Shown here: positions 3,563 to 31,970 of the stretch, piece after piece | Layout: every line of letters begins with the position of its first letter | Numbering within the stretch: the stretch's first letter is position 1 | Assembly: GCA_934691225.1 (NCBI GenBank) | Contig: CAKUSQ010000001.1 | Location: 660,001 to 692,000 of the forward strand | Length of the DNA stretch: 32,000 nucleotides | From: an uncultured Opitutales bacterium | GTDB lineage: Bacteria > Verrucomicrobiota > Verrucomicrobiia > Opitutales > UBA9783 | Direction: 5' to 3' | Notes under the pieces: generated by a model | Database searches by the model: none | Told to the model about the DNA's origin: nothing | What the model saw: the letters and a program-made list of their open reading frames with translations, nothing else | Program-made: the position numbers and the translations under genes

Positions 3563-3638
3563 GGGGTTGTAGCTCAGTTGGAAGAGCATCACAATGGCAT
3601 TGTGGGGGTCGTCGGTTCGAACCCGATCAACTCCACCA
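3563..3638 (+). tRNA. tRNA-Ala, anticodon GGC, with genomically encoded 3' CCA
   Basis: Cloverleaf folded by hand. Acceptor stem is GGGGTTG/CAACTCC and includes the Ala identity pair G3:U70. D arm is GCTC/GAGC. Anticodon stem is TCACA/TGTGG with loop AT-GGC-AT. T arm is GTCGG-TTCGAAC-CCGAT, discriminator A, CCA at 3636-3638. Confidence 0.95.
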
Positions 3639-3661
3639 TTGATTTTTTATTTTGAACCTAC

Positions 3662-3747
3662 GCTGAAGTGGTGAAATGGCAGACACGCATGATTCAGGTT
3701 CATGTGCTCATTGGGGCATGGGGGTTCAAGTCCCCCTTTCAGCACCA
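3662..3747 (+). tRNA. tRNA-Leu, anticodon CAG, class II long variable arm, with encoded 3' CCA
   Basis: Acceptor stem is GCTGAAG/TTTCAGC. Anticodon stem is CATGA/TCATG with loop TT-CAG-GT. A long variable arm (TGCTCATTGGGGCAT) is present. T arm is GGGGG-TTCAAGT-CCCCC, discriminator A, CCA at 3745-3747. Confidence 0.95.
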
Positions 3748-5791: not shown

Positions 5792-5968
5792 TTAAGCATT
5801 GTTTTCTTCAGATTCAACATCGTCTACAGGTTCTTCGTTGATACATGTATCATCTGGGCATACAGAATCGCTTAATTTAATAGTTTCAACTGCATTTTCA
5901 GTAATTTCATCTGCATGTATGAATGCATTAAAATTTAGCAACATAGAAGCGAATATTATAGCTTTCAT
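5792..5968 (-). CDS. Small (58 aa) putative secreted acidic protein, below the length cutoff of the ORF track
   Basis: Hand translation of the - strand gives MKAIIFASMLLNFNAFIHADEITENAVETIKLSDSVCPDDTCINEEPVDDVESEENNA*. It has a signal-peptide-like N-terminus, two Cys and an acidic tail. It exactly fills the trxA-rpiB gap on the same strand as both neighbours. Confidence 0.4.
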   Translation of the reverse strand: MKAIIFASMLLNFNAFIHADEITENAVETIKLSDSVCPDDTCINEEPVDDVESEENNA

Positions 5969-5997
5969 AATTAATATTTGTAAGAATATTGAAAAAA

Positions 5998-6447
5998 TTA
6001 ATCAACAAAATTTTTTGATTCAAAATCCAAAATTTCTTGTCGTCGCCGTATATGTCGTTCAGCTGTATCTATCGAGGTGGTTAAAAATACATGCAATAAT
6101 TGGAAAGCGACAGATGCCTCTAAGGTGCCTGGTAAACACAGTAAATTTATACCATTATGCTGTCGTGCTTGTTTGACTCCTTGAAGCGAGGTGATAGGTG
6201 CTGCATAAATGCCTTTGAATTTATTGGCCGTGATGGCCATACCAATACCCGATGTGCAAATAAGTAACCCTCGATGTTCTTTATCAGATTGTACCTTTAA
6301 AGCTACTTTTTGAGCTATAATTGGGTAATCGCATGCCATTGTTGATGTGGTTCCTAAATCTTGGAATTTAATATCTGTTTTTTTCAAAGCAGTTATTAAA
6401 TCTGTTTTCAGTGAAAATCCACCGTGATCTGATCCTATGTAAAGCAT
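5998..6447 (-). CDS. rpiB: Ribose-5-phosphate isomerase B (RpiB/LacA/LacB family)
   Basis: 149 aa. Motifs are IGSDHGGFSLK, CDYP, GLLICTSGIGMAITANKFKGIYAA and ERHIRR. Confidence 0.9.
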   Translation of the reverse strand: MLYIGSDHGGFSLKTDLITALKKTDIKFQDLGTTSTMACDYPIIAQKVALKVQSDKEHRGLLICTSGIGMAITANKFKGIYAAPITSLQGVKQARQHNGINLLCLPGTLEASVAFQLLHVFLTTSIDTAERHIRRRQEILDFESKNFVD

Positions 6448-9275
6448 TATTTTTGTGACTTATCAGGTTTAATTTGAACACAAATGGCAGAATTTCTTTG
6501 TAAATAAGATTTGGCTACAGCTTCTACTTCAGTTTTAGAAATGCTTTCATAAGCTTTTACATCATTTAGAGCCCAGTTGATTTTTTGCGGCTGACTTTGC
6601 CAATTAGCTAGCCAATGGATCCAAAATTTATTCGTACCGATTTTTTTCTCCAAGGAGGTTATGATAGGTTTGATAGCACGATTTAGTTCATCTTGTGATA
6701 TACCATTTTTGGCTATATCATCAGCAATGGACATCGTTTTATCGGCAATAACGTCAAGTTTTGATGGAGCAACCGTGAGGTATGCGCTTATAAAACCACG
6801 ATCAAAAACAGAATTTTGTTTTTGAGCAACTTGTGGGCTATAAGTATCTCCTAAAATCTGCCTAATTTCTTGCAATAATCGGTTTTGTAAAACAGAACGT
6901 AAAATGTTTAAATTTCGAAGTGTTTTTGCATCATTGGTTGCTTTGGTAGGCCATACAATGTACAAAGTGGCTTTATCAAGTTCTGTATGACATGCAAAGA
7001 TTTTTGTTTGTGCTTCAGGCCATGGTAATGTTTGGGCTTCATGGTTGCAATTTTTTTGCATTTCGCGATCCTGTAACTTACCAAAAGTGGCTAATAGTTG
7101 ATTGATAATAGCTGTTCTATCAAAATCACCAACGATAGAAATTTCTAGGTATTGTTTATCAAATATAGGTGTTAAAAGTTTTTTTGCTTCGTCAAAATTT
7201 CGTTGCAATAGGATAGATTGTTCTGGATACCCAAAACGATTATCGTTGCTGCTCATGAAATTGACAACTTTTGATATAAAAATTCCTTCAATAGTTTTAT
7301 CAAAATAATCGTACCATGGTGGAATGTTTTTTTTGAAATCATCTAAACCTTCAGGGCGATATCCAGGTTCGATTAAGTAAGCGCCAATCAATTGTAATTG
7401 TTCCATTAAACACTTTCGATCCGTTACGCACTTAAACGCAAAACAATCATCTTCTACATCAAAATCTAGATTGATCATTTTACCATCAAAAATGCGGTTT
7501 AAAGTATTTCGATCACATTGTTTTAATCCCCCTGCGATAAAAGATGAATCTAACAGCAAATGAATGCCAGGATAGGAGGTGTTTTTTAACGATAAAAGCC
7601 CTGAGCCGACGCCAACATGAATTAAAATTCTATCTTTATCGAAATCCGTTTGTTTTAAATTAATGCGTACTTGATTGCTCAAGCGTAAGCTTTCAATTTG
7701 AAGTTTTTCATTAAAACTTCTGTCAATGATTTTTGCTTGAGCATCTCCTCCATAAGGAGATAAAAATTCATGTTTTTTTAGTGTTTCTGGTAGCTTTAGG
7801 ACGGTTTTCTGGCTTTCTAAAAATATTTTTTTAATACTTTCTGCGGTAACATCGTCAGGTAGGGGACCGCTAACAAAAAGGAAGCTTCCGTCATTCCATA
7901 AATTATTCCATAGACTTGCGCAGTATTCAGGTGTGATGTACGGAAGGACTGCATGCAAGTAAGTTTCGTGTTGTTGCGGAGATAAGAATATAGAATTCCA
8001 CATTAATTCATCTACAATGCTATCTGCAACAGTGCTCGAAGATGTGTTTTTCCATTCCGTGGATGTGTTTAAGGCGCGTCCAGTGAGAATTGTTTTAGCT
8101 CCTTCAAGTTCTTGTTGGGAAAACCCGAACGTTGTTACGTTTCGATGAAACTTTTCAAATTCTTGTATAAGTGTTGTTAGGTTATCTTTATTACCCGAAA
8201 AAGAAAGACGGCACCTGTCTATAGATTGAAAGCTTTTGTCGCGATTAACTTGAAAATCGTTGATACAGGTTTTGTTTTTTAATTCAGCTAAACGTTGTTT
8301 TAAAATGATTTCTATGAGTTCCCAAGCAACGGATTCTTTGAGGTCATTTAAGATGAGATGAGAGCGAGGTGTCAAATATCGTTGCGCTTGTAAATAAAGT
8401 GTTGTTTCAGGTAATTCTTTATTGGAAAAAATGCTAACTTCTAATTTGTCTTTAGGCGATGAAATAGGCCCAAAATCAGGATTAGATAATGTTAATGCAT
8501 TATTTTTTTCTTTTTGTGGAGTAGCAAATGTAGCTTTAATGTGTTTTAATACATCACGTTTATTTAGGTCTCCTGTTACGATGATAGACATTCTGTGTGG
8601 TTTATACCATTGATTATAAAAATCAAAAAAATGCTTGGATGTGAAACTATTTATAGTGTCTTCCACACCTATAATAAATCGTTTTGAAAGTAAGGAATCA
8701 GGATATAAAAATTTAGACATTGCTTTGTAAGATCTGTAGAGAATGGAATCGTGTGTTCGCATTTCGGATAATATAACACCGCGTTCACGTTCAATTTCTT
8801 CCGGTAAAAATAAGCAACCGAAAGCTTGATCCCATAAAACTTTCAGACCTTTAATAAGGTCGGCATTATCATTGTGAGGAAGGTCAATTTGGTAGCAGGT
8901 ATAAAGGTAATGTGTAAAAGCATTAGTGTCGTTACCAAACCCCATACCGTTATCTTGAAAGTAATGAATTAAAGTTCCAGGTTTGAAATTTTTGGTTCCA
9001 TTGAATGTCATATGTTCAATAAAATGAGCAATACCATCATTGGTCTCATTTTCCATGGCCGCACCTGCATTGACCATTAAGCGTAAACTGATAAAACCTT
9101 TGGGGGAAGCGTGAGGATAGATGTAGTAATGCATACCATTAGGCAGTACTCCATGCGTTAATTCAGGTGCTTGTTTGAGGGGTGCATTCCATTCAGGTGA
9201 TTTTTTACTAAAAAGCCCTGGCAAGCAGGTAAAAATGATGAAATAAAGTAGGATGTTTTTATAAATGCGTATCAT
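6447..9275 (-). CDS. M16 (insulinase/pitrilysin) family zinc peptidase, secreted, large two-unit form
   Basis: 942 aa. Signal peptide is MIRIYKNILLYFIIFTCLPGLFS. The inverted zinc motif HFIEHMTFNGT (HxxEH) and the downstream ERERGVILSEM Glu are present. Its start overlaps the stop of the upstream M16 gene (ATGA). Confidence 0.85.
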   Translation of the reverse strand: MIRIYKNILLYFIIFTCLPGLFSKKSPEWNAPLKQAPELTHGVLPNGMHYYIYPHASPKGFISLRLMVNAGAAMENETNDGIAHFIEHMTFNGTKNFKPGTLIHYFQDNGMGFGNDTNAFTHYLYTCYQIDLPHNDNADLIKGLKVLWDQAFGCLFLPEEIERERGVILSEMRTHDSILYRSYKAMSKFLYPDSLLSKRFIIGVEDTINSFTSKHFFDFYNQWYKPHRMSIIVTGDLNKRDVLKHIKATFATPQKEKNNALTLSNPDFGPISSPKDKLEVSIFSNKELPETTLYLQAQRYLTPRSHLILNDLKESVAWELIEIILKQRLAELKNKTCINDFQVNRDKSFQSIDRCRLSFSGNKDNLTTLIQEFEKFHRNVTTFGFSQQELEGAKTILTGRALNTSTEWKNTSSSTVADSIVDELMWNSIFLSPQQHETYLHAVLPYITPEYCASLWNNLWNDGSFLFVSGPLPDDVTAESIKKIFLESQKTVLKLPETLKKHEFLSPYGGDAQAKIIDRSFNEKLQIESLRLSNQVRINLKQTDFDKDRILIHVGVGSGLLSLKNTSYPGIHLLLDSSFIAGGLKQCDRNTLNRIFDGKMINLDFDVEDDCFAFKCVTDRKCLMEQLQLIGAYLIEPGYRPEGLDDFKKNIPPWYDYFDKTIEGIFISKVVNFMSSNDNRFGYPEQSILLQRNFDEAKKLLTPIFDKQYLEISIVGDFDRTAIINQLLATFGKLQDREMQKNCNHEAQTLPWPEAQTKIFACHTELDKATLYIVWPTKATNDAKTLRNLNILRSVLQNRLLQEIRQILGDTYSPQVAQKQNSVFDRGFISAYLTVAPSKLDVIADKTMSIADDIAKNGISQDELNRAIKPIITSLEKKIGTNKFWIHWLANWQSQPQKINWALNDVKAYESISKTEVEAVAKSYLQRNSAICVQIKPDKSQK

Positions 9276-11884
9276 AAGTTACAAAGTTTAGGGGTTATGA
9301 GTAAAGTGCATGCGTTAGAGGGTGATAACCATTGTCGGCAATTTTCAAAGAATTCATCTAAGGTTATAGAATTGATATGTTGTTCATAAGCATTCCATTG
9401 TTCTAGTGGTAAACCTAGAAGGCAATGATAACCTACTTGAAAAGCTTTGCGTCCTATGGTTTGTAAGCGCAATTGATGGTTAACGTTTAAACAGGTTCGG
9501 CAAATTTCAAATTCTTGACGTGTAATTTTTTGATCTAATACGCGTTTAATGCATTTAAACATTTCCTGTTCAACCGTGTTTATAGCTTCCCTTTGTGTAC
9601 CTGCAAATAAGCAAAACATACCTGTTTGCAGGCCTAACAATCGGGTGGCTCCAACTGTGTATGCAAGCCCTCGCTTTTCACGAACTTCTTCTACAAAAAA
9701 GCTGGATAATCCATTAAATAATTCCTCTAAAAATTCGCTTGCGTAAAAGTTTTTACCTATCATGCCATCGATAGGATACGCTTGAAAAACCATAGCTTGT
9801 TCTTTGTTCAGTTGCAAAGTTGAATGGGGTAGCGGTTTAAATGAAAGATTGTCTTTTAAAGGTAAAAAATCGCGGTTGTACTTCAATGCTTGGCACAAAG
9901 GACTTAAGTAGTTCGTGATTTCTTCTTGCGATAAAGAGGTAGAAACAGAAAGAATGCAGTTGTTTTTGCATACAAGTTGTTTGTAAAGTTGTATGCAGTC
10001 TTCAAGATTTATGTTCGGGATGCTAGATTCGCAACCTAATTGTCCTATGCAATAGGGATGTTGCTGGAAAAATTGCTGGCGAATTTTTTGAAAACCTACA
10101 TAGAATACATCATCTTGCATTTCTTGCAGTTCGGCTAATTGAGCATTTTTTTCAGTTGTAAATGTATCGGGTAAAAAAGCAGGTTCGGTAAGCGCATTTT
10201 TTAAAATATGACATGCAAGTTCAATATCTTTTGATAGAACTTCAACCGATAAACCAAAGTGATTATTACCTGAAAAACTATTAAATTGCCCACCTATGCG
10301 TTCAATGGATTCGGCTATTTCTAACGTTGATTGGTGTTGAGTGTCTTTGGTTAGTAAGGTTGCTAACAATTGTGTTAATCCGCGCTTATCGTTGGTTTCA
10401 TAGAGTGATCCAGCTGCAAAAAGTGCTTGAATATTTGTTTTAGGAAAATGATCGCAATGCTGTACAAGAACACGAACACCTTCAATCGTAATTTCTTGAA
10501 TGCCTAATGAAACGGTTTTAGATGTACGTTGAAAATGCTTGTCATTAGAACAGCCATAAGGATCTAAAGAGACATGCGTGCAAGAAACTTCTTTAAAATA
10601 TTTACCAATAATACTTTTTACTGCATCCGGTGTTAAATTCCGTAATTCTTCTAAATAATGTTTTGTATAATTTTCATCGCCTAAACAGACGTTAGCCCAT
10701 CCAATGTGATGCGCCTGACCTGAAACCGTTTTTTGTGTATCTAACTCAGAAATGATAGCTTGATTATAAGCTTTTTGAATGGTTTGTTCTGATATATGAT
10801 CGTAAGATAACTTCGCTAAATTTGTTTGTAAATAAGACTCAACTTGAGCTTTTTTATGACTATCACAGGTATATTGTATCCAAAATAATCCTTGTCCGTC
10901 GGCCATCCAAGAAGAGGCATCAATGTTATATATGATGTGCAATTCTTCACGAAGTTTTTGATATAATAGAGAACTTTCACCACTGCCTAACACACTTGCA
11001 AGTACTTGCAATTTAGCGCTATCTTTGTGACCAATCCCTGGGATTTTATACGCAATGGTACCGCGCGATAATTGATAATCTCCGTGGTCTTGAGCGTTTC
11101 GCTGTGCTAATTGAAAGGGTTCTTGTGGAATAAATATTGGGGCAACGCTTCTAGGCAGATAATTGCCTAGATAATGTTGTACTTTGTCTTTTACCTCTGA
11201 AAGCTCTAAATTGCCTGCAATAACCAAGGTCATGTTATTGATAGCGTAGCGTTCTTTCCAGTAAGCTAGTAAATCATCGCATGTTAATTTTTTAAATATG
11301 TTGCGAATGCCAATGATAGGATAATGGTAGGGGTGTTTTTGAAAGGCATTTTTGAAAAGAATTTGGCTTAAGCGATCATCTGGATCATCGTTGCACATGT
11401 CAATTTCTCGCAGGATAACATCGCGTTCCTTATTGAGTTCATTTTCATCAAAAATTGAACATTGAAGCATGTCACCTAAAATATCTAAACCCGTATCTAA
11501 CGATTGCGTGCAACCATCATAGGTATAAACTGTCCTGTCAAATGAGGTATAAGCATTTATTTTTGCCCCTTGCGCTTGTGTTTCTTTGAAAATTTGACCA
11601 TAGGTTCTTTTTTCAGTCCCTTTAAACACCATGTGTTCAACAAAATGAGAAATGCCGGATCCTAAAAATCGACCTTCATGAATGCTGCCTGTTTTAACCC
11701 ACATTTGAAGTGCAAGCACATCCGTGTTTTGTACAGGAAGGAATAAAATAGATAGTCCATTATCAAGTTGAAAATGTATAGATTTTTGCGATAAAAAAGA
11801 TATTTCTTCCTGCGAAACCATAGACATTTTTATTATTGTTTTATAGGTTTGAGTTGTAAAGACTAAAATTGATAAATAGTTCAC
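9272..11884 (-). CDS. M16 (insulinase) family zinc peptidase, with no obvious signal peptide
   Basis: It carries HFVEHMVFKGT (HxxEH) and NKERDVILREI. The track start at 11884 is a GTG. The ATG at 11825-11827 (MSMVSQEE...) is the more likely start. It is translationally coupled to the downstream M16 gene. Confidence 0.85.
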   Translation of the reverse strand: MNYLSILVFTTQTYKTIIKMSMVSQEEISFLSQKSIHFQLDNGLSILFLPVQNTDVLALQMWVKTGSIHEGRFLGSGISHFVEHMVFKGTEKRTYGQIFKETQAQGAKINAYTSFDRTVYTYDGCTQSLDTGLDILGDMLQCSIFDENELNKERDVILREIDMCNDDPDDRLSQILFKNAFQKHPYHYPIIGIRNIFKKLTCDDLLAYWKERYAINNMTLVIAGNLELSEVKDKVQHYLGNYLPRSVAPIFIPQEPFQLAQRNAQDHGDYQLSRGTIAYKIPGIGHKDSAKLQVLASVLGSGESSLLYQKLREELHIIYNIDASSWMADGQGLFWIQYTCDSHKKAQVESYLQTNLAKLSYDHISEQTIQKAYNQAIISELDTQKTVSGQAHHIGWANVCLGDENYTKHYLEELRNLTPDAVKSIIGKYFKEVSCTHVSLDPYGCSNDKHFQRTSKTVSLGIQEITIEGVRVLVQHCDHFPKTNIQALFAAGSLYETNDKRGLTQLLATLLTKDTQHQSTLEIAESIERIGGQFNSFSGNNHFGLSVEVLSKDIELACHILKNALTEPAFLPDTFTTEKNAQLAELQEMQDDVFYVGFQKIRQQFFQQHPYCIGQLGCESSIPNINLEDCIQLYKQLVCKNNCILSVSTSLSQEEITNYLSPLCQALKYNRDFLPLKDNLSFKPLPHSTLQLNKEQAMVFQAYPIDGMIGKNFYASEFLEELFNGLSSFFVEEVREKRGLAYTVGATRLLGLQTGMFCLFAGTQREAINTVEQEMFKCIKRVLDQKITRQEFEICRTCLNVNHQLRLQTIGRKAFQVGYHCLLGLPLEQWNAYEQHINSITLDEFFENCRQWLSPSNACTLLITPKLCNL

Positions 11885-12021: not shown

Positions 12022-13416
12022 GTGAGGAGAATATTCATATTTTTTTTTGCAAAAGTAGCTGTATGTATGGCTATCATCGTAAGTTCGATTGGCTATGCTT
12101 ATCCTAGGTTTTTTGAAACAAAATTAACGGAAGATAAAGAAGTCGTATTGTTTAGGCCTTTTGTAGCTAGGTATAAATATAATTTGCATGGAAATTATCG
12201 TGAAGAAAATTATTTGCTGTATCCATTAGGTCGAGAGTATCGTCAGAAAGGCCATTTATACTGGAGTACTTTGTTGGGTTTGTTTAATTATGAACTCAGG
12301 GAAACCGATCGTAGGTTGCAAGAGGGGGCGTTTTATCCTTTTTATTTTTTTAAGAAGGGATTTAGTAAAGAAGCTGATTATGCTGCTATTTGGCCATTAG
12401 GAGGAACGGTTAAAAATTTTTTAGGTAAAGATCAATCCGATTGGTTTTTATGGCCGTTGTGGGTAAAAACAAAGAATAACGGAACAATTAATTACTGGTT
12501 TCCATGGCCATTTTTAAATAAATGTACAGGAAATGCAGATGGTTTTGGATTTTGGCCATTGGGAGGACATTTTTTTCAAAAAGATGTGTATGATAAGCGT
12601 TATGTGCTTTGGCCTTTGTTTTATCATCATGCGTATTTTCAGGATAACACAATTAAGAAAGGTTTTTTGCCATTTTATGCGTACGAATATAGTCCTAATG
12701 TTAAAGATTTATCCATTTTTTGGCCTATTTGGGGGCATCGTTGGGAAAAAACACCGCGCTACGAAGAGCATCGTATTTTGTGGCCATTATGGGTTCAAGG
12801 ACGAGGGGTAGAACGCAATGTGAATCGTTGGGCCCCTTTTTACACACATTCGGAAAATAAACGTTTAAAGCATGAAAAGACGTGGTATCTATGGCCTTTG
12901 ATTAAACATCAACGTTGGGAAGAGCGTGGAGTTGATGTCCAACAAGAACAGTTTATGTACTTTATTTTTTGGCATCAGGAACAAAAAGATTGTAAAACGA
13001 AAAAATTTTTGGCAAGGAAAACACATTTTTGGCCGTTTTATAGTTATTGGGAGAATAATCAAGGCTGCAAACAATTACAAATGTTGAGTCCTTTTGAAGT
13101 TTTTTTTCAAGGTAATAAAGTGATTCAGGATGTTTATACACCTTTGTTTAGTTTGTATCGTTACAATGAAAATAGCTATGGTGTTGAACAGAGTTTTTTG
13201 TTCAATATGTTTCGTGAAAAAAGGACGATGAATGATGAAGTAACAATGAATTTTAGTTTTTTGTTGGATTATAAAAATACGCAGCAAGAAAAATCAATTT
13301 CGTTATTGAAAGGTTTGTTTGAATATAAGAAAATTAACAATGAAAAATCCTTGAAATTATTTTGGATGAGATTGAAAAAAAATCAGACAAGCAAAAAGGA
13401 TTGTAAAGTTTTATGA
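12022..13416 (+). CDS. Secreted aromatic-Pro (WP) repeat protein of unknown function, first gene of the mla-type array
   Basis: 464 aa from a GTG start. Signal-peptide-like N-terminus is MRRIFIFFFAKVAVCMAIIVSSIGYA. About 15-20 tandem units of 19-22 aa are each headed by [FLIW]-[WYLA]-P-[LFI], for example IWPLGG, LWPLWV, FWPLGG, LWPLFY, FWPIWG, LWPLWV, LWPLIK and FWPFYS. Its stop overlaps the mlaE start (ATGA at 13413-13416). Confidence 0.7.
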   Translation: MRRIFIFFFAKVAVCMAIIVSSIGYAYPRFFETKLTEDKEVVLFRPFVARYKYNLHGNYREENYLLYPLGREYRQKGHLYWSTLLGLFNYELRETDRRLQEGAFYPFYFFKKGFSKEADYAAIWPLGGTVKNFLGKDQSDWFLWPLWVKTKNNGTINYWFPWPFLNKCTGNADGFGFWPLGGHFFQKDVYDKRYVLWPLFYHHAYFQDNTIKKGFLPFYAYEYSPNVKDLSIFWPIWGHRWEKTPRYEEHRILWPLWVQGRGVERNVNRWAPFYTHSENKRLKHEKTWYLWPLIKHQRWEERGVDVQQEQFMYFIFWHQEQKDCKTKKFLARKTHFWPFYSYWENNQGCKQLQMLSPFEVFFQGNKVIQDVYTPLFSLYRYNENSYGVEQSFLFNMFREKRTMNDEVTMNFSFLLDYKNTQQEKSISLLKGLFEYKKINNEKSLKLFWMRLKKNQTSKKDCKVL

Positions 13417-14156
13417 GAATTTTAAAAGATTGGCAATATGCGTTTAGTTTGCTGGTGGGTTCCTTGAAAGAATTGAGGTACCTGATGCGTCAGCTGCCAC
13501 GTTGCATTGCACATAGTTGCAATATTGGTTATAAAACATTACCGATTGTTGCCATTTTAAGTTTGTTTATGGGAGGAATTTTAGCCCTGCAAACCGGGTA
13601 TAGTTTAAGTAAATTACCCGGAGCACAATCGTTTTTGGGAAGCATTGTTGGATTATCTATGTGTCGAGAATTGGGGCCTTTAATGACGGCTTTTTTGTTA
13701 ACCGGGCGCGTGGGATCAGCTATTACAGCAGAATTAGCTTCGATGTCCGTTTATCAAGAAATTGATGCATTACGAACGATGAATTTGTCGCCAGTTCGTT
13801 TATTGGTGATGCCACGATTGTTAGGAGGATTATTAATGATGCCATTTTTAACCATGTTTTCAAATGTTTTGGGATGGTTAGGTGGATGGCTAATTGTAAA
13901 AATGGTAGATATAATTTCCATTGATGGAAGCATTTATTGGCGCAGTTTGAAACAGTATGTGGATGTGGAAAGCATTTGTGATGGTTTGATAAAAGCTGAA
14001 TCTTTTGCATTAACCATCATACTTATGAGTTGTTCAATCGGGCTCAGGACGCGTGGAGGGCCACGAGAGATAGGTGCTTCCGTAACTAGCACCTTGGTAC
14101 AAACGATGGTAGCTATTTTGGTACTAGATTACTTTTTAACCAATTTGCTTATTTAA
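13413..14156 (+). CDS. mlaE: MlaE-family ABC transporter permease (phospholipid/lipid maintenance)
   Basis: 247 aa polytopic protein. Motifs are GYSLSKLPGAQSFLGSIVGLSMCRELGPLMTAFLLTGRVGSAITAELASM..YQEIDALRTM, the characteristic MlaE/YrbE block. Confidence 0.85.
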   Translation: MRILKDWQYAFSLLVGSLKELRYLMRQLPRCIAHSCNIGYKTLPIVAILSLFMGGILALQTGYSLSKLPGAQSFLGSIVGLSMCRELGPLMTAFLLTGRVGSAITAELASMSVYQEIDALRTMNLSPVRLLVMPRLLGGLLMMPFLTMFSNVLGWLGGWLIVKMVDIISIDGSIYWRSLKQYVDVESICDGLIKAESFALTIILMSCSIGLRTRGGPREIGASVTSTLVQTMVAILVLDYFLTNLLI

Positions 14157-14159
14157 ATT

Positions 14160-14945
14160 ATGTCTATTTTTAATTCGAAAACAAAAACAGCTGTTTCTAT
14201 CAAAGTAGAAGAGGTAAGCAAAACCTTTGGTTCACATACGGTTTTAGAGAAATTAAATCTGTCGGTATCACCAGGTGAAGTTTTTGTTTTAATGGGACCA
14301 AGTGGTACAGGTAAAAGTGTTTTTTTAAAGTTGCTTTCAGGGTTGGATCAGCCTACTTCCGGTAAAATTGAAATCAATCATACGCCATTGAAAGAAGTTC
14401 GGGCGACACAAAAGTACGTATTAGGACTTGTTTTTCAAGCAGGTGCCTTATTCAATTCGATGAATGTATTTGATAATTTGGCACTGTACTTTCGCGAGCA
14501 TGCTCTATTTAGCGAAGCTGAAATAGAAAAACGTATTGGGCAAGTTTTGCATCTTTTAAACTTGAGGGATGCAGCCTTATTGATGCCAGCTGATTTGTCT
14601 GGAGGTATGAAAAAACGTGTAGCGTTGGCTCGTGGATTGCTTATGGAACCTGATGTTTTATTGTTTGATGAGCCTACTTCAGAACTTGATCCGATGACGG
14701 CCGCTTCCATCATAGAATTAATTGGCTATGTCAATAAGAATTTAGGCATTACTACCGTTATTGCTTCACACGATATTGCTTTAGCCAGAAGTATAGGGCA
14801 CCACATTGGCGTTTTACAGAATGGTAAAATTGAGGAGATTTATACCCCAGAAACGCTTATACAATCCAGCAATGTTTTTGTTAAGAATTTTTTAAATCCA
14901 ACCGTTAATATAGAACATCCTAAATTTGTATCTTTTTTATCATGA
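14160..14945 (+). CDS. mlaF: MlaF-like ABC transporter ATP-binding protein
   Basis: Walker A is GPSGTGKS, the Q-loop is VFQAGALF, the ABC signature is LSGGMKKRVALAR, Walker B is LLFDEPTSELD and the H-loop is ASHD. Confidence 0.9.
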   Translation: MSIFNSKTKTAVSIKVEEVSKTFGSHTVLEKLNLSVSPGEVFVLMGPSGTGKSVFLKLLSGLDQPTSGKIEINHTPLKEVRATQKYVLGLVFQAGALFNSMNVFDNLALYFREHALFSEAEIEKRIGQVLHLLNLRDAALLMPADLSGGMKKRVALARGLLMEPDVLLFDEPTSELDPMTAASIIELIGYVNKNLGITTVIASHDIALARSIGHHIGVLQNGKIEEIYTPETLIQSSNVFVKNFLNPTVNIEHPKFVSFLS

Positions 14946-15934
14946 AAACAAAGTATGAAAGTATTCGCGTAATTCTGTTTGCCGTATTTGGGTTATTCCT
15001 AATGTATGTTGTTTATTCAGCGTTGAATAACTTATCTGTTTCGCGACATGACAGTTACAATATTAAAGCACTTTTTACCGATTTAAAACAATTGCAAATC
15101 GGCGATGATGTTAGGATTGCGGGTGTTCGTGTAGGAAGCGTTACCCATACTTATCTTAATAAGGGTTTGGCTGTAGCTGTATTGAGCATAGAAAAAAAAT
15201 ACGCTATACCTGAAGATTCTGTCGCTACTATTTTAATGGCTGGATTGTTGGGAGCGAATTATATTTCTATTGTTCCAGGAATCTCAACAAATATGATGGA
15301 TGAATCAGGTTTTTTAGAAACGCAAAAAGTTTCGGATGTTTCTTCAGTGATTCAAAAATTTAGTTCTATCGGTGATCGATTGAATCGAATTTTGTCAGGA
15401 TTTGATGGAAGCGATGAAGGTGATGCCTCAGGAAGGCCTAATTTGTTTCAGGAATTGGGTGATTTCTTCCACAATAATAAAGATAAATTAGAAAAAATTG
15501 TGGACAATATTTCAGAGATTACCGGAAAGATTTCAGAAGGGCAGGGGACTTTGGGCCGACTTATCAATGAGGATCAAGCTTACAATGATTTGTTAGATAC
15601 CATGCAGTCTATAAAAACAGCTGCACTTAAGGTGGATTCTATATTGAAAAATTTTGATGATATTTCCAAAAACATAAAAGATGGTGACGGATTGCTGTGC
15701 AAATTAATTTCAGACGAAAAAACAGCGCAATCCTTTGAAGAAATCTTAAACAATATTAAGTCGTTTTCAAATAAGTTAAATAGTGAAAATAGCACTTTGG
15801 GACGTATCATTTCAAATGATGATTTGTATAAGCAGGCAGAAGCAACTTTAGGAAAAGTCGAAAAAGCTGTGGATAGCGTTTCAAATTCAGGCCCTATCAC
15901 TGCTGTTGGAGCCGCTGCAAGTGCATTATTTTAA
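14942..15934 (+). CDS. mlaD: MlaD/MCE-domain protein with a long helical C-terminal extension
   Basis: It has one N-terminal TM segment (VILFAVFGLFLMYVVY). The MCE domain reads IKALFTDLKQLQIGDDVRIAGVRVGSVT...AGLLGANYISIVPG. About 190 aa of helical, coiled-coil-like sequence follow. Its start overlaps the mlaF stop. Confidence 0.8.
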   Translation: MKTKYESIRVILFAVFGLFLMYVVYSALNNLSVSRHDSYNIKALFTDLKQLQIGDDVRIAGVRVGSVTHTYLNKGLAVAVLSIEKKYAIPEDSVATILMAGLLGANYISIVPGISTNMMDESGFLETQKVSDVSSVIQKFSSIGDRLNRILSGFDGSDEGDASGRPNLFQELGDFFHNNKDKLEKIVDNISEITGKISEGQGTLGRLINEDQAYNDLLDTMQSIKTAALKVDSILKNFDDISKNIKDGDGLLCKLISDEKTAQSFEEILNNIKSFSNKLNSENSTLGRIISNDDLYKQAEATLGKVEKAVDSVSNSGPITAVGAAASALF

Positions 15935-15941
15935 TACAAAG

Positions 15942-17111
15942 ATGCATTTTAATTTAACTAAATCTTCTTTTGAAAAATGTTGTAAGTATTATGAAGAGAT
16001 AGCAGAGGTAGAAAAACGTTTTGATCGTATCCAAGCACAAAATTTGCATCCATTGGATAAAATTTATATCCTTTTGCAAACATGTAAATTAGGTACACTT
16101 AATTTTTCACATTTGGCACGTTGTGGTTTCATTGCTAGTTCGTTTTTAAAATCATTTGTAACAAAAGGTATTATTTCTGAGGAAGAAAAGACGGCACTTA
16201 TAAATAATATTCAAACGATTACAGGACAATTTTTTGAAAAAACGCAAGAAGCTATAATGGGTAATATTTCAAAAGAAGATTGCATTCAAACCTATGGCCA
16301 TTTGCGTCCTGGTACGTATGATATTACTTCCCCAACTTACCGTTCAGATCCAGATAAATATTTATTTGCTAATACTTCCGTAAAGGAAAAATCTAAAACA
16401 GCTAAAACGGTATTTGGTAGCACTAAATTGGAATCAAGTTTAAAAGAATTGTTTGATATTTCTTTGGATGATTTTAAGAAATTTTTATCACAAGCTATTG
16501 CAGGACGAGAGTATTCTAAGTTTGTTTTTACACGTTATGTTTCACTTGTGTTAGATCTTATTAAAGAGATGGGTCAGTCTTACGGTTTTAGTGCGGACGA
16601 CATGTCTCATTTGCCTGTCACTGTATTTGAAGATGTTAGAAATGGGTTATATTCTGTAAAAGATGTAAAAAATTTGTTTAAATCTATCATTGAACCAGGT
16701 AAAGAGTACGATCGAGTTATACAAAGTATAGAATTGCCACCATTGATAAAGCAAACAGAGGATTTTTATTCATTTTTTGTTCCAAAAACATTGCCTAATT
16801 TTATTGGGGATAAGTGTATAGAAACGGAATTGATTTATTTAAAAAATTCAATGCATACAGATGGAGTTTGCTTAAAAAATAAGATTGTTTTAATTGAAAA
16901 AGCAGATCCAGGTTTTGATTGGATTTTTAATTACGGAATTGCTGGACTTATTACAGCTTATGGGGGTCCTAATTCTCATATGGCGATTCGAGCAGCTGAA
17001 TTTCATTTGCCTGCTAGTATTGGTGTGGGGTCATCATTGTTCGATAAGTTAAAAACTGCACAATTTGTTCAATTAGACTGTTCAGCTCATAGGCTTAATG
17101 TTATTCGGTGA
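15942..17111 (+). CDS. PEP-utilising-enzyme family protein, central domain plus C-terminal phosphohistidine swivel domain. It resembles the C-terminal half of a Cj1418-type L-glutamine kinase and has no ATP-grasp domain.
   Basis: The C-terminal motif GLITAYGGPNSHMAIRAAEFHLPASIGVG is the PEP-utilising mobile-domain signature, with the His codon at 16977-16979. The track start at 15906 is a TTG inside mlaD. The first ATG is at 15942, 7 nt after the mlaD stop. No nucleotide-binding domain is encoded upstream. Confidence 0.65.
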   Translation: MHFNLTKSSFEKCCKYYEEIAEVEKRFDRIQAQNLHPLDKIYILLQTCKLGTLNFSHLARCGFIASSFLKSFVTKGIISEEEKTALINNIQTITGQFFEKTQEAIMGNISKEDCIQTYGHLRPGTYDITSPTYRSDPDKYLFANTSVKEKSKTAKTVFGSTKLESSLKELFDISLDDFKKFLSQAIAGREYSKFVFTRYVSLVLDLIKEMGQSYGFSADDMSHLPVTVFEDVRNGLYSVKDVKNLFKSIIEPGKEYDRVIQSIELPPLIKQTEDFYSFFVPKTLPNFIGDKCIETELIYLKNSMHTDGVCLKNKIVLIEKADPGFDWIFNYGIAGLITAYGGPNSHMAIRAAEFHLPASIGVGSSLFDKLKTAQFVQLDCSAHRLNVIR

Positions 17112-17115
17112 TATT

Positions 17116-17712
17116 ATGTTAAAAGTTGGTATTACTCAACGTGTTGATTACATTGAATCCATAGGAGAAACGCGTGATGTTTTAGACCAGCGTTGGGTAG
17201 AACTACTGAAAAATAATGGGATAATTTTGATCCCTATACCTAATAAGTGTTTTGTTCAAAGCTTTATTGATGTGGTTAAGTTGAATGGAATTATTGTAAG
17301 TGGTGGAAATGATCATGCATCTCGTTTAGCTTGTGAAACGGATTGCGTTGATTACTGTTTAAAACATCAACTGCCTTTATTAGGTGTGTGTCATGGGATG
17401 CAGTTTATAGGACAATTTTTTGGTTCCCATTTGGTACGTATTGAGGAGCATGTTGGAAATTGTCATGATGTAAATATAAGAGATAATCGTTATGGAATTC
17501 CAAGAGGTAATTTTAAAGTTAACTCTTTTCATAATTTTACATTGGATAAGGTACCGAGTGTGTTTTTTGTTTTGGCAACCGATAACGCAGGACATTGTGA
17601 AGCTATGTTTCACAAAAATTTACCAGTAGTAACCTTTATGTGGCATCCTGAGCGTCCACCATTTTTGAATTGGTTTAATCATTTTATAAAGAATTTTTAT
17701 GAAGAATACTAA
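17116..17712 (+). CDS. Class I glutamine amidotransferase-like hydrolase, peptidase C26 family (gamma-glutamyl hydrolase type, Cj1417-like)
   Basis: The nucleophile elbow is LLGVCHGMQFIG, with the Cys codon at 17389-17391. The His/Glu pair is in MWHPER. Length of about 198-204 aa is typical. An alternative ATG at 17098 overlaps the upstream gene. Confidence 0.8.
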   Translation: MLKVGITQRVDYIESIGETRDVLDQRWVELLKNNGIILIPIPNKCFVQSFIDVVKLNGIIVSGGNDHASRLACETDCVDYCLKHQLPLLGVCHGMQFIGQFFGSHLVRIEEHVGNCHDVNIRDNRYGIPRGNFKVNSFHNFTLDKVPSVFFVLATDNAGHCEAMFHKNLPVVTFMWHPERPPFLNWFNHFIKNFYEEY

Positions 17713-18439
17713 GATTTTTGTTCTTTGTGCCGGTGAAGGGAAACGTTTGCGTCCGTATACAGAAGATAAACCTAAGTGTATGGTACCTTATAAAAACAAA
17801 CCATTATTGCAGTATCAGTTAGAGGTTTTTGAAAAATTTCATTTAAATGATATCACGCTTATCGGCGGGTACCACTATGAAGCTTTACCGAAAGACTTGT
17901 ACCCTGTGGTTGTTAATCATGATTTTTCAACTACCAACATGCTTTTTAGCTTGTTTTGTGCCGAAAATGATATGCCAGAAGACCACGATATAATTATAAG
18001 CTATGGAGATATTATTTACAATGCTTCTGTTTTAGAATCTTTATTAAAAGCTAACGATGCTTGCAGTATAATTACGGATATTGATTGGCGAACTTATTGG
18101 AATAATCGTATGGAAGATCCACTGAAAGATGCTGAAACATTTCGTTGGAATGTAGAAACGCGTCGTATTTTCGAGTTAGGTAAGAAGCCAAAAACACTAG
18201 ATGATATTCAAGGGCAGTATATCGGTTTATTTAAAATTGCAGCTCCATTTGTTAAAAAATTCAAGCAAATGTACGAAACATTTAAACGCACCTATCCGAA
18301 CTATAAAGATGCGTACATGACAGATTTTTTACAGTTTCTCATTAATAAAGATTTCCCAACGTTTGGTGTTCCTATACATAATAAATGGGCAGAATTTGAT
18401 ACCGTTAATGATTTAAATCTAGATATTCATTGGTTATGA
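17699..18439 (+). CDS. Nucleotidyltransferase, LicC/Cj1416-like cytidylyltransferase fold
   Basis: 246 aa. The N-terminal signature is IFVLCAGEGKRLRPYTEDKPKCMV (G-x-G-x-R-L...K-P-K), followed by YGDIIY. It overlaps the upstream gene by 14 nt and the downstream gene by ATGA. Confidence 0.8.
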   Translation: MKNTKIFVLCAGEGKRLRPYTEDKPKCMVPYKNKPLLQYQLEVFEKFHLNDITLIGGYHYEALPKDLYPVVVNHDFSTTNMLFSLFCAENDMPEDHDIIISYGDIIYNASVLESLLKANDACSIITDIDWRTYWNNRMEDPLKDAETFRWNVETRRIFELGKKPKTLDDIQGQYIGLFKIAAPFVKKFKQMYETFKRTYPNYKDAYMTDFLQFLINKDFPTFGVPIHNKWAEFDTVNDLNLDIHWL

Positions 18440-19749
18440 AAGATTTTTTAAAAAATTCGTTGTTTAACTGTTTATTACCTTGGGCATTTATTTGTTTTCG
18501 GTATAATCAATGTCATGGATATTTTGCTGAAAGCTACGAAGTTTTATTCGCTTTTTTAGGACTTATATGGCTTGTTAACATTTTTTTGTCATTTATAAAG
18601 TTACCGATTAACTTTATTGTATCTTTGTGGGTTGTCCTTATTTTACCTAATTTGTCTGGTAGCTTAATAAAGGATATTATTTATAAGATTTTTTTCGTTT
18701 TAGGGTGTACTTCTGTTATAAAGAAATCATCTACAAATCCGATTAAAATTTTACTTTCAATTATTATTGGATTTAACCTTTTTCAAATTGTTCAAAGAGA
18801 TTATTGTGCAAGAAAAACAGCTAATAAATTGATAAAAAATGTTTCTATAAATAAAAATTTTTCATGCAATGAAAACATTTATTGGATTGTCTGCGATGCT
18901 TACACAAGTTTGGATGGTTTGAAGGATTATTACCACTTTGATAATACAAAATTTTATCAAGATTTAAACGATTTAGGATTCTTAACACCTGATGGACAAG
19001 TGCCATATAAGAAAGTAAATCAATTTCCAACGTTAAAAGCACTAAATTTTTATACCAATTTTAATCATTTTGATGTTACAAAAGAAAATTCTTTGACATT
19101 ACATTATGGGTTAAAATATAACATTTTTTTTAATACTTTAGTTGCAAAAGGTTATTCATTGTGGGCAACTTATTCTAGAGCCCCGTTTTTATACAAATTA
19201 CAAAATGTGAGTTCGTTAGGGAACAAAGGTGTTTCAGTAGCTTTGCAATTTTTTTATCATTGTTTTAACCATAATAAGTTTTTAGCAAAAATAGTTTCGA
19301 AAAAACTTAATGAGCAACTGTATATTCACCAAAAGGATGTTTTTAAGTTTTTACGTTATAATTTTAAAACAACTAATAAATGTTTTTATTATATTCATAT
19401 AGATTCTCCACATGCTCCTTTTGTTAGAGGTCAAAACAATGAATTTGTAAATGATCAAAAAAGTGTCGTTTGGGGAGAAAATGAGGTTGGAACAAATGCA
19501 TATAAATTTAAAGATTACCGAAAAGGATATATAAAACAATTACAGGGATTAAATAAGAAAGTTTTGGAATTGATTAAGTTGATTTGCCAAAAGGATCCTC
19601 ATGGAGTTATCATTTTGCAAGGTGATCATGGAACATTTACAACCGATGATTTACGAGAACATCAGTCATTTTTGTTTGCTATAAAAACAAATATTGCGTA
19701 CAAATATCTTCAAACAGAACAATTTTTCAAACAGTTTATTTATGAATAG
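18436..19749 (+). CDS. Membrane-anchored alkaline-phosphatase-superfamily enzyme with the architecture of a phospho-group transferase or phosphodiesterase (EptA/LtaS/NPP-like)
   Basis: About 5 N-terminal TM segments precede a soluble domain. That domain carries the motif set IYWIVCDAY (metal Asp), NQFPTLKAL (candidate Thr nucleophile, compare the fPT.T motif of NPPs), YYIHIDSPHAPF (D-x-x-H) and ILQGDHGT (DHG). The ATG at 18436 overlaps the upstream stop. The track start at 18430 is a TTG. Confidence 0.6.
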   Translation: MKDFLKNSLFNCLLPWAFICFRYNQCHGYFAESYEVLFAFLGLIWLVNIFLSFIKLPINFIVSLWVVLILPNLSGSLIKDIIYKIFFVLGCTSVIKKSSTNPIKILLSIIIGFNLFQIVQRDYCARKTANKLIKNVSINKNFSCNENIYWIVCDAYTSLDGLKDYYHFDNTKFYQDLNDLGFLTPDGQVPYKKVNQFPTLKALNFYTNFNHFDVTKENSLTLHYGLKYNIFFNTLVAKGYSLWATYSRAPFLYKLQNVSSLGNKGVSVALQFFYHCFNHNKFLAKIVSKKLNEQLYIHQKDVFKFLRYNFKTTNKCFYYIHIDSPHAPFVRGQNNEFVNDQKSVVWGENEVGTNAYKFKDYRKGYIKQLQGLNKKVLELIKLICQKDPHGVIILQGDHGTFTTDDLREHQSFLFAIKTNIAYKYLQTEQFFKQFIYE

Positions 19750-20962
19750 TATGAGAATTATGATTTTTATATTTATTTTGTTTCTTGTAATAGAACATTT
19801 TTTAAAAAAATATTTAATTAAAACAGGGTTGTTCCTTAAAGAATTTCCTAACATTGATAAGAGGATAATAAATCGTTATAAGACATTTGATAAAGTATTG
19901 GGTTGGAAACCTATACCTACTCTAAATCATCCGGACAATACAGGATCGTACATAGGTATAAATTCAGGAAGTTTTTTTTCTATAAATGAATTCGGTAGTA
20001 GATTTTTTAAAAATTCTTTTTCTTCAAAATACATAGCGACATTTGGAGATTCTTTTTGTATGTGTAGGGAAGTAAACGATGATTGTACATTTCAATATTT
20101 TTTATCACAACAAACTAATTCTTTCGTTTTTAATTATGGAGTTGGTAATTATGGATTAGATCAAGCACTTTTAAGATTCGAAACAACTAAATTGCCTCCT
20201 TCGGTAAAACATGTGATAATGGTAATAACCCCTTGGACAATAGAGAGAATTATCAGTATTTGGAAACACTACTGCGAACCAGGTAATTTGTTAGCTGCAA
20301 AACCAAGATTTGTATTGGAAAATAAAAAATTAAAGTTAATCGATAATTTTATTAAGAATACTAGTGATTTTTTAAATTTAAAAAAATATAAGGATTTTTT
20401 ACATAACTATGACGGTAATTATTGTTTTTTTTATCAACAATTAAAAACATTTCCAAAAACAGCATTAGGATATTTATTTTCCAATCCAGATGCTATAAAA
20501 TATATTTTAGCTGTAAGTAAAATAAAAAGCATAAAACTTGAAGAAAAAAATAGAAAGGAAGCTATAGGAAGCTTTTTAAAGCAATCAGAACCATTTTTAT
20601 TAAAAAAGTTTTATCAAGAAAATCAATATTTACAATCCTTATATGATAAACAAAAGGAGTTATTAAAAAATATATTGAAAAGGTTTGTAGAGTCTTGTGT
20701 TAACGATGATAAGGTACCGTATTTAGTATTTTTACCATCATATTCGCATGTAAAATTTATAAAACAAGGAAATCCTTTGTATAGAAATATAGTAAATCCC
20801 ATATGTGAAGGGATTGGATTGAATTTTATAGATGGATTTAATTTTTGGAAAACGTTTGATGAAGACGAATTAAAAAATTGTTACATAGATACTTATGGCC
20901 ATCATTCAAAAATTGGGAATAAGTATATAGCTGATTTGATTTATAAAACGTGGTTTATTTAA
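19742..20962 (+). CDS. Signal-anchored SGNH/GDSL-like hydrolase or acyltransferase, family assignment tentative
   Basis: N-terminal anchor is MNSMRIMIFIFILFLVIEHF. Block I is IATFGDSFCMC, a Gly/Asn block is NYGVGNYGLDQ, and the C-terminal D..H block is YIDTYGHHS. The track start at 19694 is a TTG. The ATG at 19742 overlaps the upstream stop by 8 nt. Confidence 0.55.
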   Translation: MNSMRIMIFIFILFLVIEHFLKKYLIKTGLFLKEFPNIDKRIINRYKTFDKVLGWKPIPTLNHPDNTGSYIGINSGSFFSINEFGSRFFKNSFSSKYIATFGDSFCMCREVNDDCTFQYFLSQQTNSFVFNYGVGNYGLDQALLRFETTKLPPSVKHVIMVITPWTIERIISIWKHYCEPGNLLAAKPRFVLENKKLKLIDNFIKNTSDFLNLKKYKDFLHNYDGNYCFFYQQLKTFPKTALGYLFSNPDAIKYILAVSKIKSIKLEEKNRKEAIGSFLKQSEPFLLKKFYQENQYLQSLYDKQKELLKNILKRFVESCVNDDKVPYLVFLPSYSHVKFIKQGNPLYRNIVNPICEGIGLNFIDGFNFWKTFDEDELKNCYIDTYGHHSKIGNKYIADLIYKTWFI

Positions 20963-31219: not shown

Positions 31220-31970
31220 AAAAATTAAAAATTTAGAAGGAGGTTTGAGGACTCCTGCTGAGGCCGATGAAGGTCGTAGAGTAAAAGAATGTTTTGATAA
31301 AAATTGTTGTTCTTGGGAGAAAAAAATGGAAAATTTCCCCAAATATGTGCGACGACAAAATCTGACACGATTTTTAGCCTTATACGAATTATTTAAAAAA
31401 ATTCTTCCATTAAAAGGGTCTATCGTTTAATGTGGCGTGTTTCAAGGTTTTGGGATAATGTCATGGCTTAAATTTTCGGCTATTTTGGAACCTGTAAACT
31501 TGACACGTCGAATTTATGGTTTTGATTCGTTTTCTGGTTTTCCATCAGTTTCAGAAGCTGATAAGACTGTTGTTTCTAACCAGGTAGCAGAAGGTGGTTT
31601 ATACGCTAACAGTAAAGAAGAATTGGAAGAATTAATTTCTATTACCGACAAAACAAGGTTTTTGGGGCATGTCAATAAAGTAGAATTAATCCAAGGTGAT
31701 GCCTGTAAATCTATTCCTGATTTTATGAATAAAAAGAAACACCTCTTAATAAGTTTATTATTCATGGATTTTGATTTATATGAACCAACTAAAATTGCTC
31801 TTGAAAATTTTTTACCACGTATGCCGAAAGGTTCAATTTTAGCATTTGATGAATTAGATAATCCATTATGGCCCGGTGAAACACTTGCAATGATTGAAAA
31901 GTTTTCTAATAAGATTCCTAAAATTCAAAGGTTTGATTTTGATCCTTACATAGGTTATATTGAAATTTAG
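31212..31970 (+). pseudogene. TylF/MycF (macrocin-O-methyltransferase) family methyltransferase interrupted by a single in-frame TAA
   Basis: ORFs 31212-31430 and 31437-31970 are in the same frame. The junction reads LKGSIV-TAA-CGVFQGFG. The family SAM-binding motif there is G.ivE.GV..G, so TAA replaces the conserved Glu (GAA). Downstream motifs are YGFDSFSGFP, LLFMDFDLYEPT and AFDE. Confidence 0.75.

Follow-up and report, generated by a model that had tools for sequence, protein, structure and literature searches.

An exported W-P-L hairpin-repeat protein family linked to mlaE-mlaF-mlaD operons across bacterial phyla, and its candidate role at the outer-membrane end of the transporter

Lipid hand-over between MCE/Mla transporters and the outer membrane is an acknowledged gap. 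A locus in an uncultured Opitutales bacterium (GenBank assembly GCA_934691225.1, contig CAKUSQ010000001.1, positions 660,001 to 692,000; this stretch of 32,000 nucleotides is referred to here as the window, and positions are counted from its first letter) bears on this gap, because its Mla-type transporter operon opens with a gene for a repeat protein of no named family. The repeat is marked by Trp-Pro (WP) dipeptides, and an original prediction made from the letters of the DNA had proposed that the protein could be the outer-membrane or periplasmic component of the transporter. Is this WP-repeat protein a partner of the Mla system, and what kind of structure would it bring to it? We found that the gene stands beside mla genes across phyla and in rearranged gene orders, and that the protein is confidently predicted to fold as a long array of beta-hairpins.

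The WP-repeat gene occupies positions 12022 to 13416 of the forward strand and encodes 464 residues from a GTG start, as originally predicted. It is the first gene of the operon, and its stop codon shares an ATGA with the start of mlaE at positions 13413 to 13416 of the forward strand (...GTT TTA TGA, with the mlaE ATG at 13413), which agrees with the overlap claimed earlier; the same ATGA overlap is present in Oleiharenicola and Methylomirabilis loci. The three genes that follow on the same strand encode an MlaE-type permease of 247 residues (13413 to 14156; PF02405, E = 1.6e-67; TIGR00056, E = 3.3e-61), an MlaF-type ATP-binding cassette (ABC) ATPase of 261 residues (14160 to 14945; PF00005, E = 5.8e-32; NF008809, E = 1.6e-48, below the curated cut-off) and an MlaD-type single-MCE protein of 330 residues (14942 to 15934; PF02470, E = 1.5e-16). 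With mlaE, ABC ATPase and MCE genes standing consecutively, the group is an Mla/MCE ABC transporter operon. Promoter and terminator scans gave signals at chance level only.

Conservation of this arrangement was counted in 82 loci with at least 900 nucleotides of downstream DNA. Directly downstream of the WP-repeat gene and on the same strand, mlaE was present in 80 of them, and the order mlaE-mlaF-mlaD was kept in 68 of 73 loci; the flanks of the operon varied between loci. The gene also precedes mlaE-mlaF-mlaD in a Deltaproteobacteria metagenome-assembled genome (relative P0204), in Candidatus Methylomirabilis (cluster P0185/P0263) and at the locus of relative P0208, from a third lineage, overlapping mlaE in the first two. 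Where the gene order is rearranged the linkage is retained, one contig reading mlaE-PHP-mlaF-X-mlaD (L091) and another mlaD-X (L090), with X standing for the WP-repeat relative. A neighbourhood that is kept across phyla and gene orders while its flanks vary is hard to explain without a shared function, and it is the strongest evidence for one in this analysis. Thus, the genetic side of the proposed Mla partnership, including the tie to mla genes in other genomes, is borne out by synteny.

The family to which the protein belongs is large. A search of a 90%-clustered database returned 716 matches, all labelled 'hypothetical' and none with a Pfam domain, and a profile search of 1.84 billion representatives recovered 1,984 clusters (50% identity) at E <=1e-3, 718 of them at <=1e-30; among the 150 clusters listed, most are full-length proteins of ~450-560 residues. 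Among species-representative genomes, tblastn confirmed 455 stretches that code for a relative. The 80 best of these 455 all come from Verrucomicrobiota, and those classified below phylum all belong to class Opitutia (Opitutales, Puniceicoccales, Oleiharenicola, Lacunisphaera).

The original prediction could not place the protein in a named family, and the searches agree. Neither Pfam nor NCBIfam holds a family that matches it at E up to 0.1, Pfam found no family and no domain fusion in 16 relatives, longer ones included, and PDB sequences gave zero matches at E up to 10, whether queried with the single sequence or with a profile of 94 sequences. The literature searched contains no description of such an Mla partner. 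The transporter is of a type already known; what Pfam, NCBIfam, PDB and the literature searched do not describe is the family of its partner, with its motif and predicted architecture.

Some members of the family depart from the common form. Two giant relatives (P0227, 1,767 residues, and P0234, 1,402 residues) carry ~85 hairpins of the form [FL][FL]P[FLIV][VYF]W in a five-hairpin super-repeat of ~92 residues, and their C-termini hold a module resembling that of the window protein. The neighbours of P0227 are glycoside hydrolase and TonB genes, and its composition looks Bacteroidota-like. At locus L025 the WP-repeat gene lies between mutS and pheS, and at locus L032 it is followed by an unannotated open reading frame (ORF) of 396 residues and an aldose epimerase gene.

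The N-terminus of the window protein, described earlier as signal-peptide-like, has the layout of a Sec-type signal: the sequence MRRIFIFFFAKVAVCMAIIVSSIGYA, followed by YP, combines a basic n-region, a hydrophobic core of 19 residues and a small-x-small site. Residues 1-26 (12022 to 12099, forward strand) were read as the signal peptide, with a predicted cleavage between GYA and YP, and AlphaFold2 places a helix of low predicted local distance difference test score (pLDDT) over residues 2-22, in the signal-peptide region. Signal peptides are canonical throughout the homologues (for example MFSRRLVWPLCAALLAAAALRA, followed by EEQNGWP), and the lipobox is missing in most.

Downstream of the signal, nine WP dipeptides are present at residues 124, 144, 162, 178, 197, 234, 254, 291 and 337, compared with 0.94 expected and a maximum of 6 in 20,000 shuffles, and for the looser motif [WYFLA]P[LFIW] the count is 13 where 1.8 would be expected. 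Across an alignment of 94 homologues (33-68% identity), prolines 46, 68, 106, 125, 145, 163, 179, 217, 235, 272, 292 and 338 are invariant, prolines 198 and 255 are kept in at least 90%, and tryptophans 197, 234, 254, 291 and 337 are invariant or nearly so. Autocorrelation maxima in the family profile lie at lags 19-20, 37, 57, 73, 92-93, 111 and 129, which gives a repeat period of ~18.5 residues (16-20). The nine WP units of the original prediction thus stand, far above chance, with a period shorter than the 19-22 residues it had given. Its count of ~20 units is likewise adjusted: the proline motif recurs in ~15-17 units between residues 26 and 378, the last ~85 residues form hairpins without the motif, and the structural count is 22 hairpins. 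A three-hairpin super-repeat is weakly hinted at by an autocorrelation of 0.137 at lag 57, compared with 0.11-0.12 at other multiples.

The 94-sequence alignment was also the input to AlphaFold2, which modelled the full-length protein with a mean pLDDT of 93.1 and a predicted template-modelling score (pTM) of 0.80. The model consists of 44 short strands of 4-8 residues that pair with their sequence neighbours as 22 hairpins, with turns of 2-5 residues and ~10.5 residues per strand when turns are included; the meander is broken solely by two small helices within residues 366-376. Three regions can be told apart on the forward strand. Motif statistics, the model and covariation define an array of 17 hairpins (34 strands, residues 27-354; 12100 to 13083) with [hydrophobic][W/F/Y]-P-[L/F][hydrophobic] at alternate turns. 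The alignment, the model and covariation mark residues 355-378 (13084 to 13155) as the most conserved segment, a short helical insert of consensus LSPFEVFFPxNxxVRQLYTPLF in which S356, P357, E359, V360, F361, F362, N365, R369, Y372, P374 and L375 are invariant or near-invariant. The strand map and covariation place hairpins without the WP motif over residues 379-451 (13156 to 13374). When residues 101-301 were modelled alone, the strands were unchanged (pLDDT 96, pTM 0.80); the array thus appears self-sufficient, which fits the existence of relatives with ~85 hairpins.

Covariation within the family was consistent with this model. It was calculated by kernelised pseudo-likelihood from a 327-sequence alignment (effective number ~245), with which a partly converged GREMLIN-type run agreed; mean-field direct coupling analysis, by contrast, was swamped by gaps. 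The strongest pseudo-likelihood pairs form hairpin ladders in the AlphaFold2 register, and strands covary both across tight turns (200-215, 241-248, 259-268, 318-332) and across WP turns (138-151, 229-240, 62-73, 158-167, 249-258). Hairpin covariation across both turn types supports a continuous in-plane meander and speaks against a solenoid whose proline turns would be arcs joining separate sheets. At longer range, 903 non-adjacent pairs of secondary-structure elements were compared and those with z > 3 considered. Residues 350-354 covary with 379-383 (z 6.9), which makes the helical segment 355-378 an insertion between strands that pair with each other. Covariation was further detected between 357-366 and both 304-311 and 316-323 (z 4.9 and 3.1), between 247-252 and 350-354 (z 4.5) and between 108-123 and 441-452 (z 3.0-3.3), and the first and last strands gave no signal among the 903 pairs. 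These long-range contacts argue that the chain is no simple straight rod; both the C-terminal module and the conserved insert seem to fold back against the hairpin array.

When the motif was laid on the strand map, W-P-L proved to be the turn itself, at every second turn. The WP motifs therefore all fall on one edge of the ribbon, which makes that edge aromatic and greasy; the opposite edge is formed by tight G/N/D/K turns. Family-mean Wimley-White interfacial energies at offsets -2, -1, +1 and +2 from the proline are -0.54, -1.08, -0.73 and -0.62 kcal/mol; offsets -4 and -3 lie close to zero, and the remaining hairpin positions range from about zero to unfavourable, positive values. Around each proline, hydrophobicity is limited to offsets -4, -2, -1, +1 and +2. 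Strand centres are charged or polar on both faces, as in KHQRWEER, VDVQQEQF and THSENK. At ~5 hydrophobic residues per junction over ~16 junctions, the greasy edge comprises ~80 side chains, aromatic or aliphatic, of a kind that favours the membrane interface. The model thereby predicts a ribbon with one aromatic greasy edge, a hydrophilic body and a hydrophilic far edge.

Structure prediction and a Foldseek search, the course advised with the original prediction, yielded a confident all-beta hairpin model and no close solved analogue. The full-length search, with 50 matches listed as in the search that followed it, gave template-modelling (TM) scores <=0.21 throughout, led by WD40 and YWTD propellers; because these repeat matches were ranked by E-value, the search was uninformative on global shape, and fragment 101-301 was modelled and searched instead. 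Its top matches were the TCP10 G-box of CPAP/SAS-4 (probability 1.0, TM 0.27-0.32), engineered single-layer sheets of OspA (TM 0.26-0.32), Toxoplasma MORN1 (TM 0.34) and the teneurin YD shell (TM 0.24-0.27), and no membrane barrel was among the 50 matches listed in either search. These matches point to the class of long single-layer antiparallel sheets of hairpin repeats. The CPAP/SAS-4 G-box, OspA and MORN proteins share with the WP-repeat protein a continuous antiparallel meander whose faces are mostly exposed to solvent (Foldseek probability 0.98-1.00), but they superpose at a TM of just 0.26-0.34 and a root-mean-square deviation of 11-15 A. Pfam gives no TCP10 or MORN match for the WP-repeat protein. 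What sets its family apart from these proteins is the W-P-L turn and a greasy edge on one side only.

Several established folds were considered and set aside, including those that had been offered for the repeat. MORN repeats are hairpin repeats of ~20 residues, rich in aromatic residues and glycine; the MORN pattern (YxGxWxxGKxxGxG, ~23 residues) has no Pfam match here at E up to 0.1, the period is ~18.5 residues, and the likeness is one of structural class only. Choline-binding and YD/RHS repeats have no Pfam match either, covariation indicates in-plane hairpins, and the teneurin TM does not exceed 0.27. A beta-solenoid, one of the three folds named in the original prediction, does not fit the continuous hairpin meander, which argues against beta-arcs; its three-bladed hairpin form was rejected because the strands flanking WP turns covary as true hairpins, and a coiled ribbon with contacts from rim to opposite rim because no periodic rim-to-tight-turn covariation was found. 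A closed barrel or ring does not agree with N- and C-terminal strands that give no covariation signal. For an integral outer-membrane barrel, also named at the outset, the strands of 4-8 residues fall short of the ~9 or more needed, both faces are polar, a polar tail follows the last strand and no C-terminal beta-signal is present. The third suggestion, a propeller of WD40 or YWTD type, was abandoned on its TM of 0.11-0.20, a period of one hairpin rather than four strands, and polar strand centres. Among known Mla and MCE partners, MlaA (VacJ) has no Pfam or NCBIfam match at E up to 0.1 and differs in its canonical lipobox, which is absent here; MlaC/Ttg2D has no match in either database and has a mixed alpha/beta pocket fold, against the all-beta fold here; and PqiC-like proteins (ABC_trans_aux), which carry a lipobox cysteine and a ring-forming alpha/beta fold of ~190 residues, have no Pfam match, the signals of the WP-repeat family are mostly of the signal-peptidase-I type, and PqiC and PA3214 are not among the Foldseek matches listed.

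Within the transporter, MlaD is the proposed contact of the WP-repeat protein. Window MlaD has an MCE domain at residues 38-113 and a helical region at ~130-310, with coiled-coil-type Pfam matches over residues 114-308, and its relatives in PDB are MlaD and Mce1 subunits. Its orthologues in linked loci carry a precomputed PF28544 Helical_needle annotation, by which the linked MlaD is putatively of the needle type. The protein ends in a hydrophobic tail of 14 residues, GPITAVGAAASALF-COOH (15890 to 15931, forward strand), a candidate docking element. Every one of the ~70 linked loci whose MlaD is complete keeps the pattern [GA]P[ILV][TS]A[VI]G....[LF]F, also written GP[IV]TAVG..A.ALF-COOH, in which the terminal Phe looks invariant; loci L086, L087, L089 and L090, from other phyla, have variants of it. 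Examples of MlaD tails from other phyla are APLNTLGAAFGILTLF, GPLSIIGIGIQALGAF and APLSAIGVVSGFLF. The tail resembles the beta-signal of outer-membrane proteins, or the tip strands of Mce1 that form a six-stranded barrel.

No other candidate for an outer-membrane or periplasmic component is seen nearby. The comparison with Pfam covered 25 of the 27 window ORFs that reach 120 residues (left out were 31437-31970 and 5799-6176, the latter overlapping the opposite-strand ORF 5998-6447), and none of the 25 matched MlaA, MlaB/STAS, MlaC or a PqiC-like protein, in keeping with the earlier remark that MlaA, MlaB and MlaC are not visible in the window. Genes for MlaA, MlaC and PqiC-like proteins are likewise absent from the listed linked operons.

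Outer-membrane-side partners of MlaFED-type transporters are established in other systems, namely MlaA-OmpC/F in E. coli and TGD4, the partner of TGD1-3, in chloroplasts. MlaA is an alpha-helical lipoprotein and TGD4 a barrel-type protein. Neither has a Pfam match to the WP-repeat protein. More generally, the known outer-membrane MCE partners are a porin-like barrel and MlaA-like or PqiC-like lipoproteins, and for several MCE systems the outer-membrane component is not known (PMC13631591). The closest parallels to the present operon are PA3211-PA3214 of P. aeruginosa and the 'chimeric Mla-Pqi' system Mpc of Brucella (PMC13631591, PMC12436622). Their operons likewise encode an MlaE-like permease, an ATPase, a single-MCE protein and a further exported subunit; the C-terminal helices of the MCE protein form a periplasm-spanning needle there, and putatively here as well. 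PA3211-PA3214 comprise an MlaE-like permease, an ATPase, a single-MCE needle protein of 312 residues (compared with 330 for MlaD here) and a PqiC-like lipoprotein; the PA3213 needle, a rod of ~170 A, extends to an octameric ring of lipoproteins at the outer membrane, in which its C-terminal peptide is held (PMC13631591). The extra subunit is where the systems differ, being a PqiC-like lipoprotein in an octameric ring in PA3211-PA3214 and Mpc, and here a non-lipidated hairpin-repeat protein of 44 strands that has no sequence or fold similarity to it and whose gene is usually upstream of mlaE. Veillonella parvula resembles the present system in its minimal MlaEFD without MlaA or MlaC, and its long MlaD is proposed to bridge the membranes (PMC10665443); there, however, a 10-strand barrel is fused to MlaD, whereas here MlaD ends in the 14-residue hydrophobic tail and the beta-protein is separate. 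The MlaD-fused outer-membrane barrel of Veillonella is reported by Grasekamp et al. to be wholly absent from the MlaDs of PVC and FCB bacteria, and 'as yet unidentified proteins' were raised by them as a possibility (PMC10665443).

Against this background, we consider it likely that the WP-repeat protein is a physical subunit of the transporter. That it is, more specifically, a dedicated Sec-exported subunit of a needle-type MlaFED with an envelope-docking role biased to the outer membrane is a reading to which we give about even chances. In such a system the helical needle of the MlaD hexamer alone would span the periplasm, and the ribbon would lie at its distal, outer-membrane end with the greasy edge dipped in the periplasmic leaflet of the outer membrane. 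At this site the ribbon could receive the six hydrophobic C-terminal tails of MlaD (GPITAVG...ALF) and supply the lipid entry or exit site, a role held elsewhere by MlaA, a PqiC-like ring or the MlaD C-terminal barrel. The outer-membrane location, the contact with the MlaD tip and the role in lipid transfer are suggested by analogy with PA3214/PqiC and by the interfacial W-P-L belt. We advance only tentatively the wider proposal that the family could be a fourth, so far unrecognised structural class of outer-membrane-end MCE component, capturing MlaD tails and forming a lipid portal in lineages without MlaA, MlaC, PqiC or an MlaD barrel, among them Verrucomicrobiota (Opitutia), Methylomirabilota and some 'Deltaproteobacteria'.

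Some observations weigh against a docking subunit at the outer membrane. The protein has neither a lipid anchor nor membrane-spanning strands, and the long-range packing of 247-252 on 350-354 and of 108-123 on 441-452 could bury part of the greasy edge. The two loci L025 and L032, of the 82 counted, have no adjacent mla genes, and the giant relative P0227 stands by itself, away from mla genes; a tie to Mla is therefore not inherent in the hairpin array. The same three cases would suit a functionally unrelated envelope protein, for example one that binds cell wall or glycan, that merely shares the mlaFED promoter, as would the fact that aromatic-rich hairpin repeats of 20 residues, such as choline-binding and MORN repeats, bind small ligands; a linkage kept across phyla, in three gene orders and amid varying flanks makes this the least probable of the explanations weighed. 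An accessory on the inner-membrane side, or one that sheathes the needle, is unlikely but deserves more weight. It would bind the periplasmic leaflet of the cytoplasmic membrane round MlaE and the MCE ring, or wrap the needle, and stabilise or gate the transporter; the synteny evidence serves it equally, its gene opens the operon and has its translation coupled to that of mlaE, an interfacial aromatic belt would bind either membrane, and 44 extended strands at ~4.8 A would reach ~20 nm, comparable to the length of the needle. Known MCE accessories on the inner-membrane side are, however, membrane-anchored or cytoplasmic, and here there is a cleavable signal peptide only; a fully extended sheath is also at odds with the pTM of 0.80 and the long-range covariation.

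The exported, anchorless protein with its amphipathic edge could alternatively do the work of MlaC, as a lipid carrier or lipid-binding chaperone that is soluble in the periplasm and ferries or buffers lipids along the hydrophobic edge, and no MlaC was found in the scanned window ORFs. We regard this as improbable, since a long MlaD of the needle type, as the linked one putatively is, would make a shuttle unnecessary (PMC10665443, PMC13631591); moreover, the fold is not of the pocket type, and neither Pfam nor Foldseek relates the protein to MlaC or LolA. An integral outer-membrane beta-barrel or a beta-propeller would account for an all-beta protein of 44 sequential strands with a signal peptide, and WD40 and YWTD proteins do head the full-length Foldseek list by E-value. 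This too is improbable, and slightly more so, given short strands that are polar on both faces, no terminal aromatic beta-signal, the low propeller TM, no barrel among the matches listed, no covariation between first and last strands, and an array that expands to ~85 hairpins in relatives.

For the hand-over of lipids at the outer membrane, the WP-repeat family offers a concrete and testable candidate. It is large (~2,000 clusters at 50% identity), confidently foldable and tied to mlaFED of the putative needle type in at least three phyla, and culturable hosts such as Oleiharenicola are available. A long single-layer sheet with one aromatic edge is also of interest to the structural biology of membrane proteins and repeat proteins.

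The surroundings of the operon in the window are varied. Divergent from it, on the reverse strand at 6447 to 11884, are two overlapping tandem genes for M16 (insulinase-like) peptidases of 942 and 870 residues, each with duplicated M16 and M16_C halves. Further upstream, at 3563 to 3747 of the forward strand, are tandem tRNA-Ala(GGC) and tRNA-Leu(CAG) genes. An ORF at 275 to 733 of the forward strand falls into the family of CesT/Tir type III secretion chaperones (PF05932, E = 7.6e-19), a surprising neighbour for major facilitator superfamily transporter and prepilin peptidase genes in an Opitutales-like genome. On the other side of the operon, an ORF of 401 residues within 15906 to 17712 (forward strand) overlaps the end of mlaD by 29 nucleotides and contains only a C-terminal PF00391 phosphoenolpyruvate-utilising mobile domain. 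It is followed by genes for a class-I glutamine amidotransferase and a MobA-like nucleotidyltransferase, and together these genes resemble an unusual cassette for modifying sugars or phosphonates. Between 18000 and 25000 the G+C content falls to 25-31%, compared with ~35% elsewhere. Several ORFs of 350-440 residues in this region (18430-19749, 19694-20962 and 22889-23932) have no Pfam match and are situated between nucleotidyltransferase, UDP-glucose dehydrogenase, DegT aminotransferase and methyltransferase genes; the region is probably a surface-glycan island.

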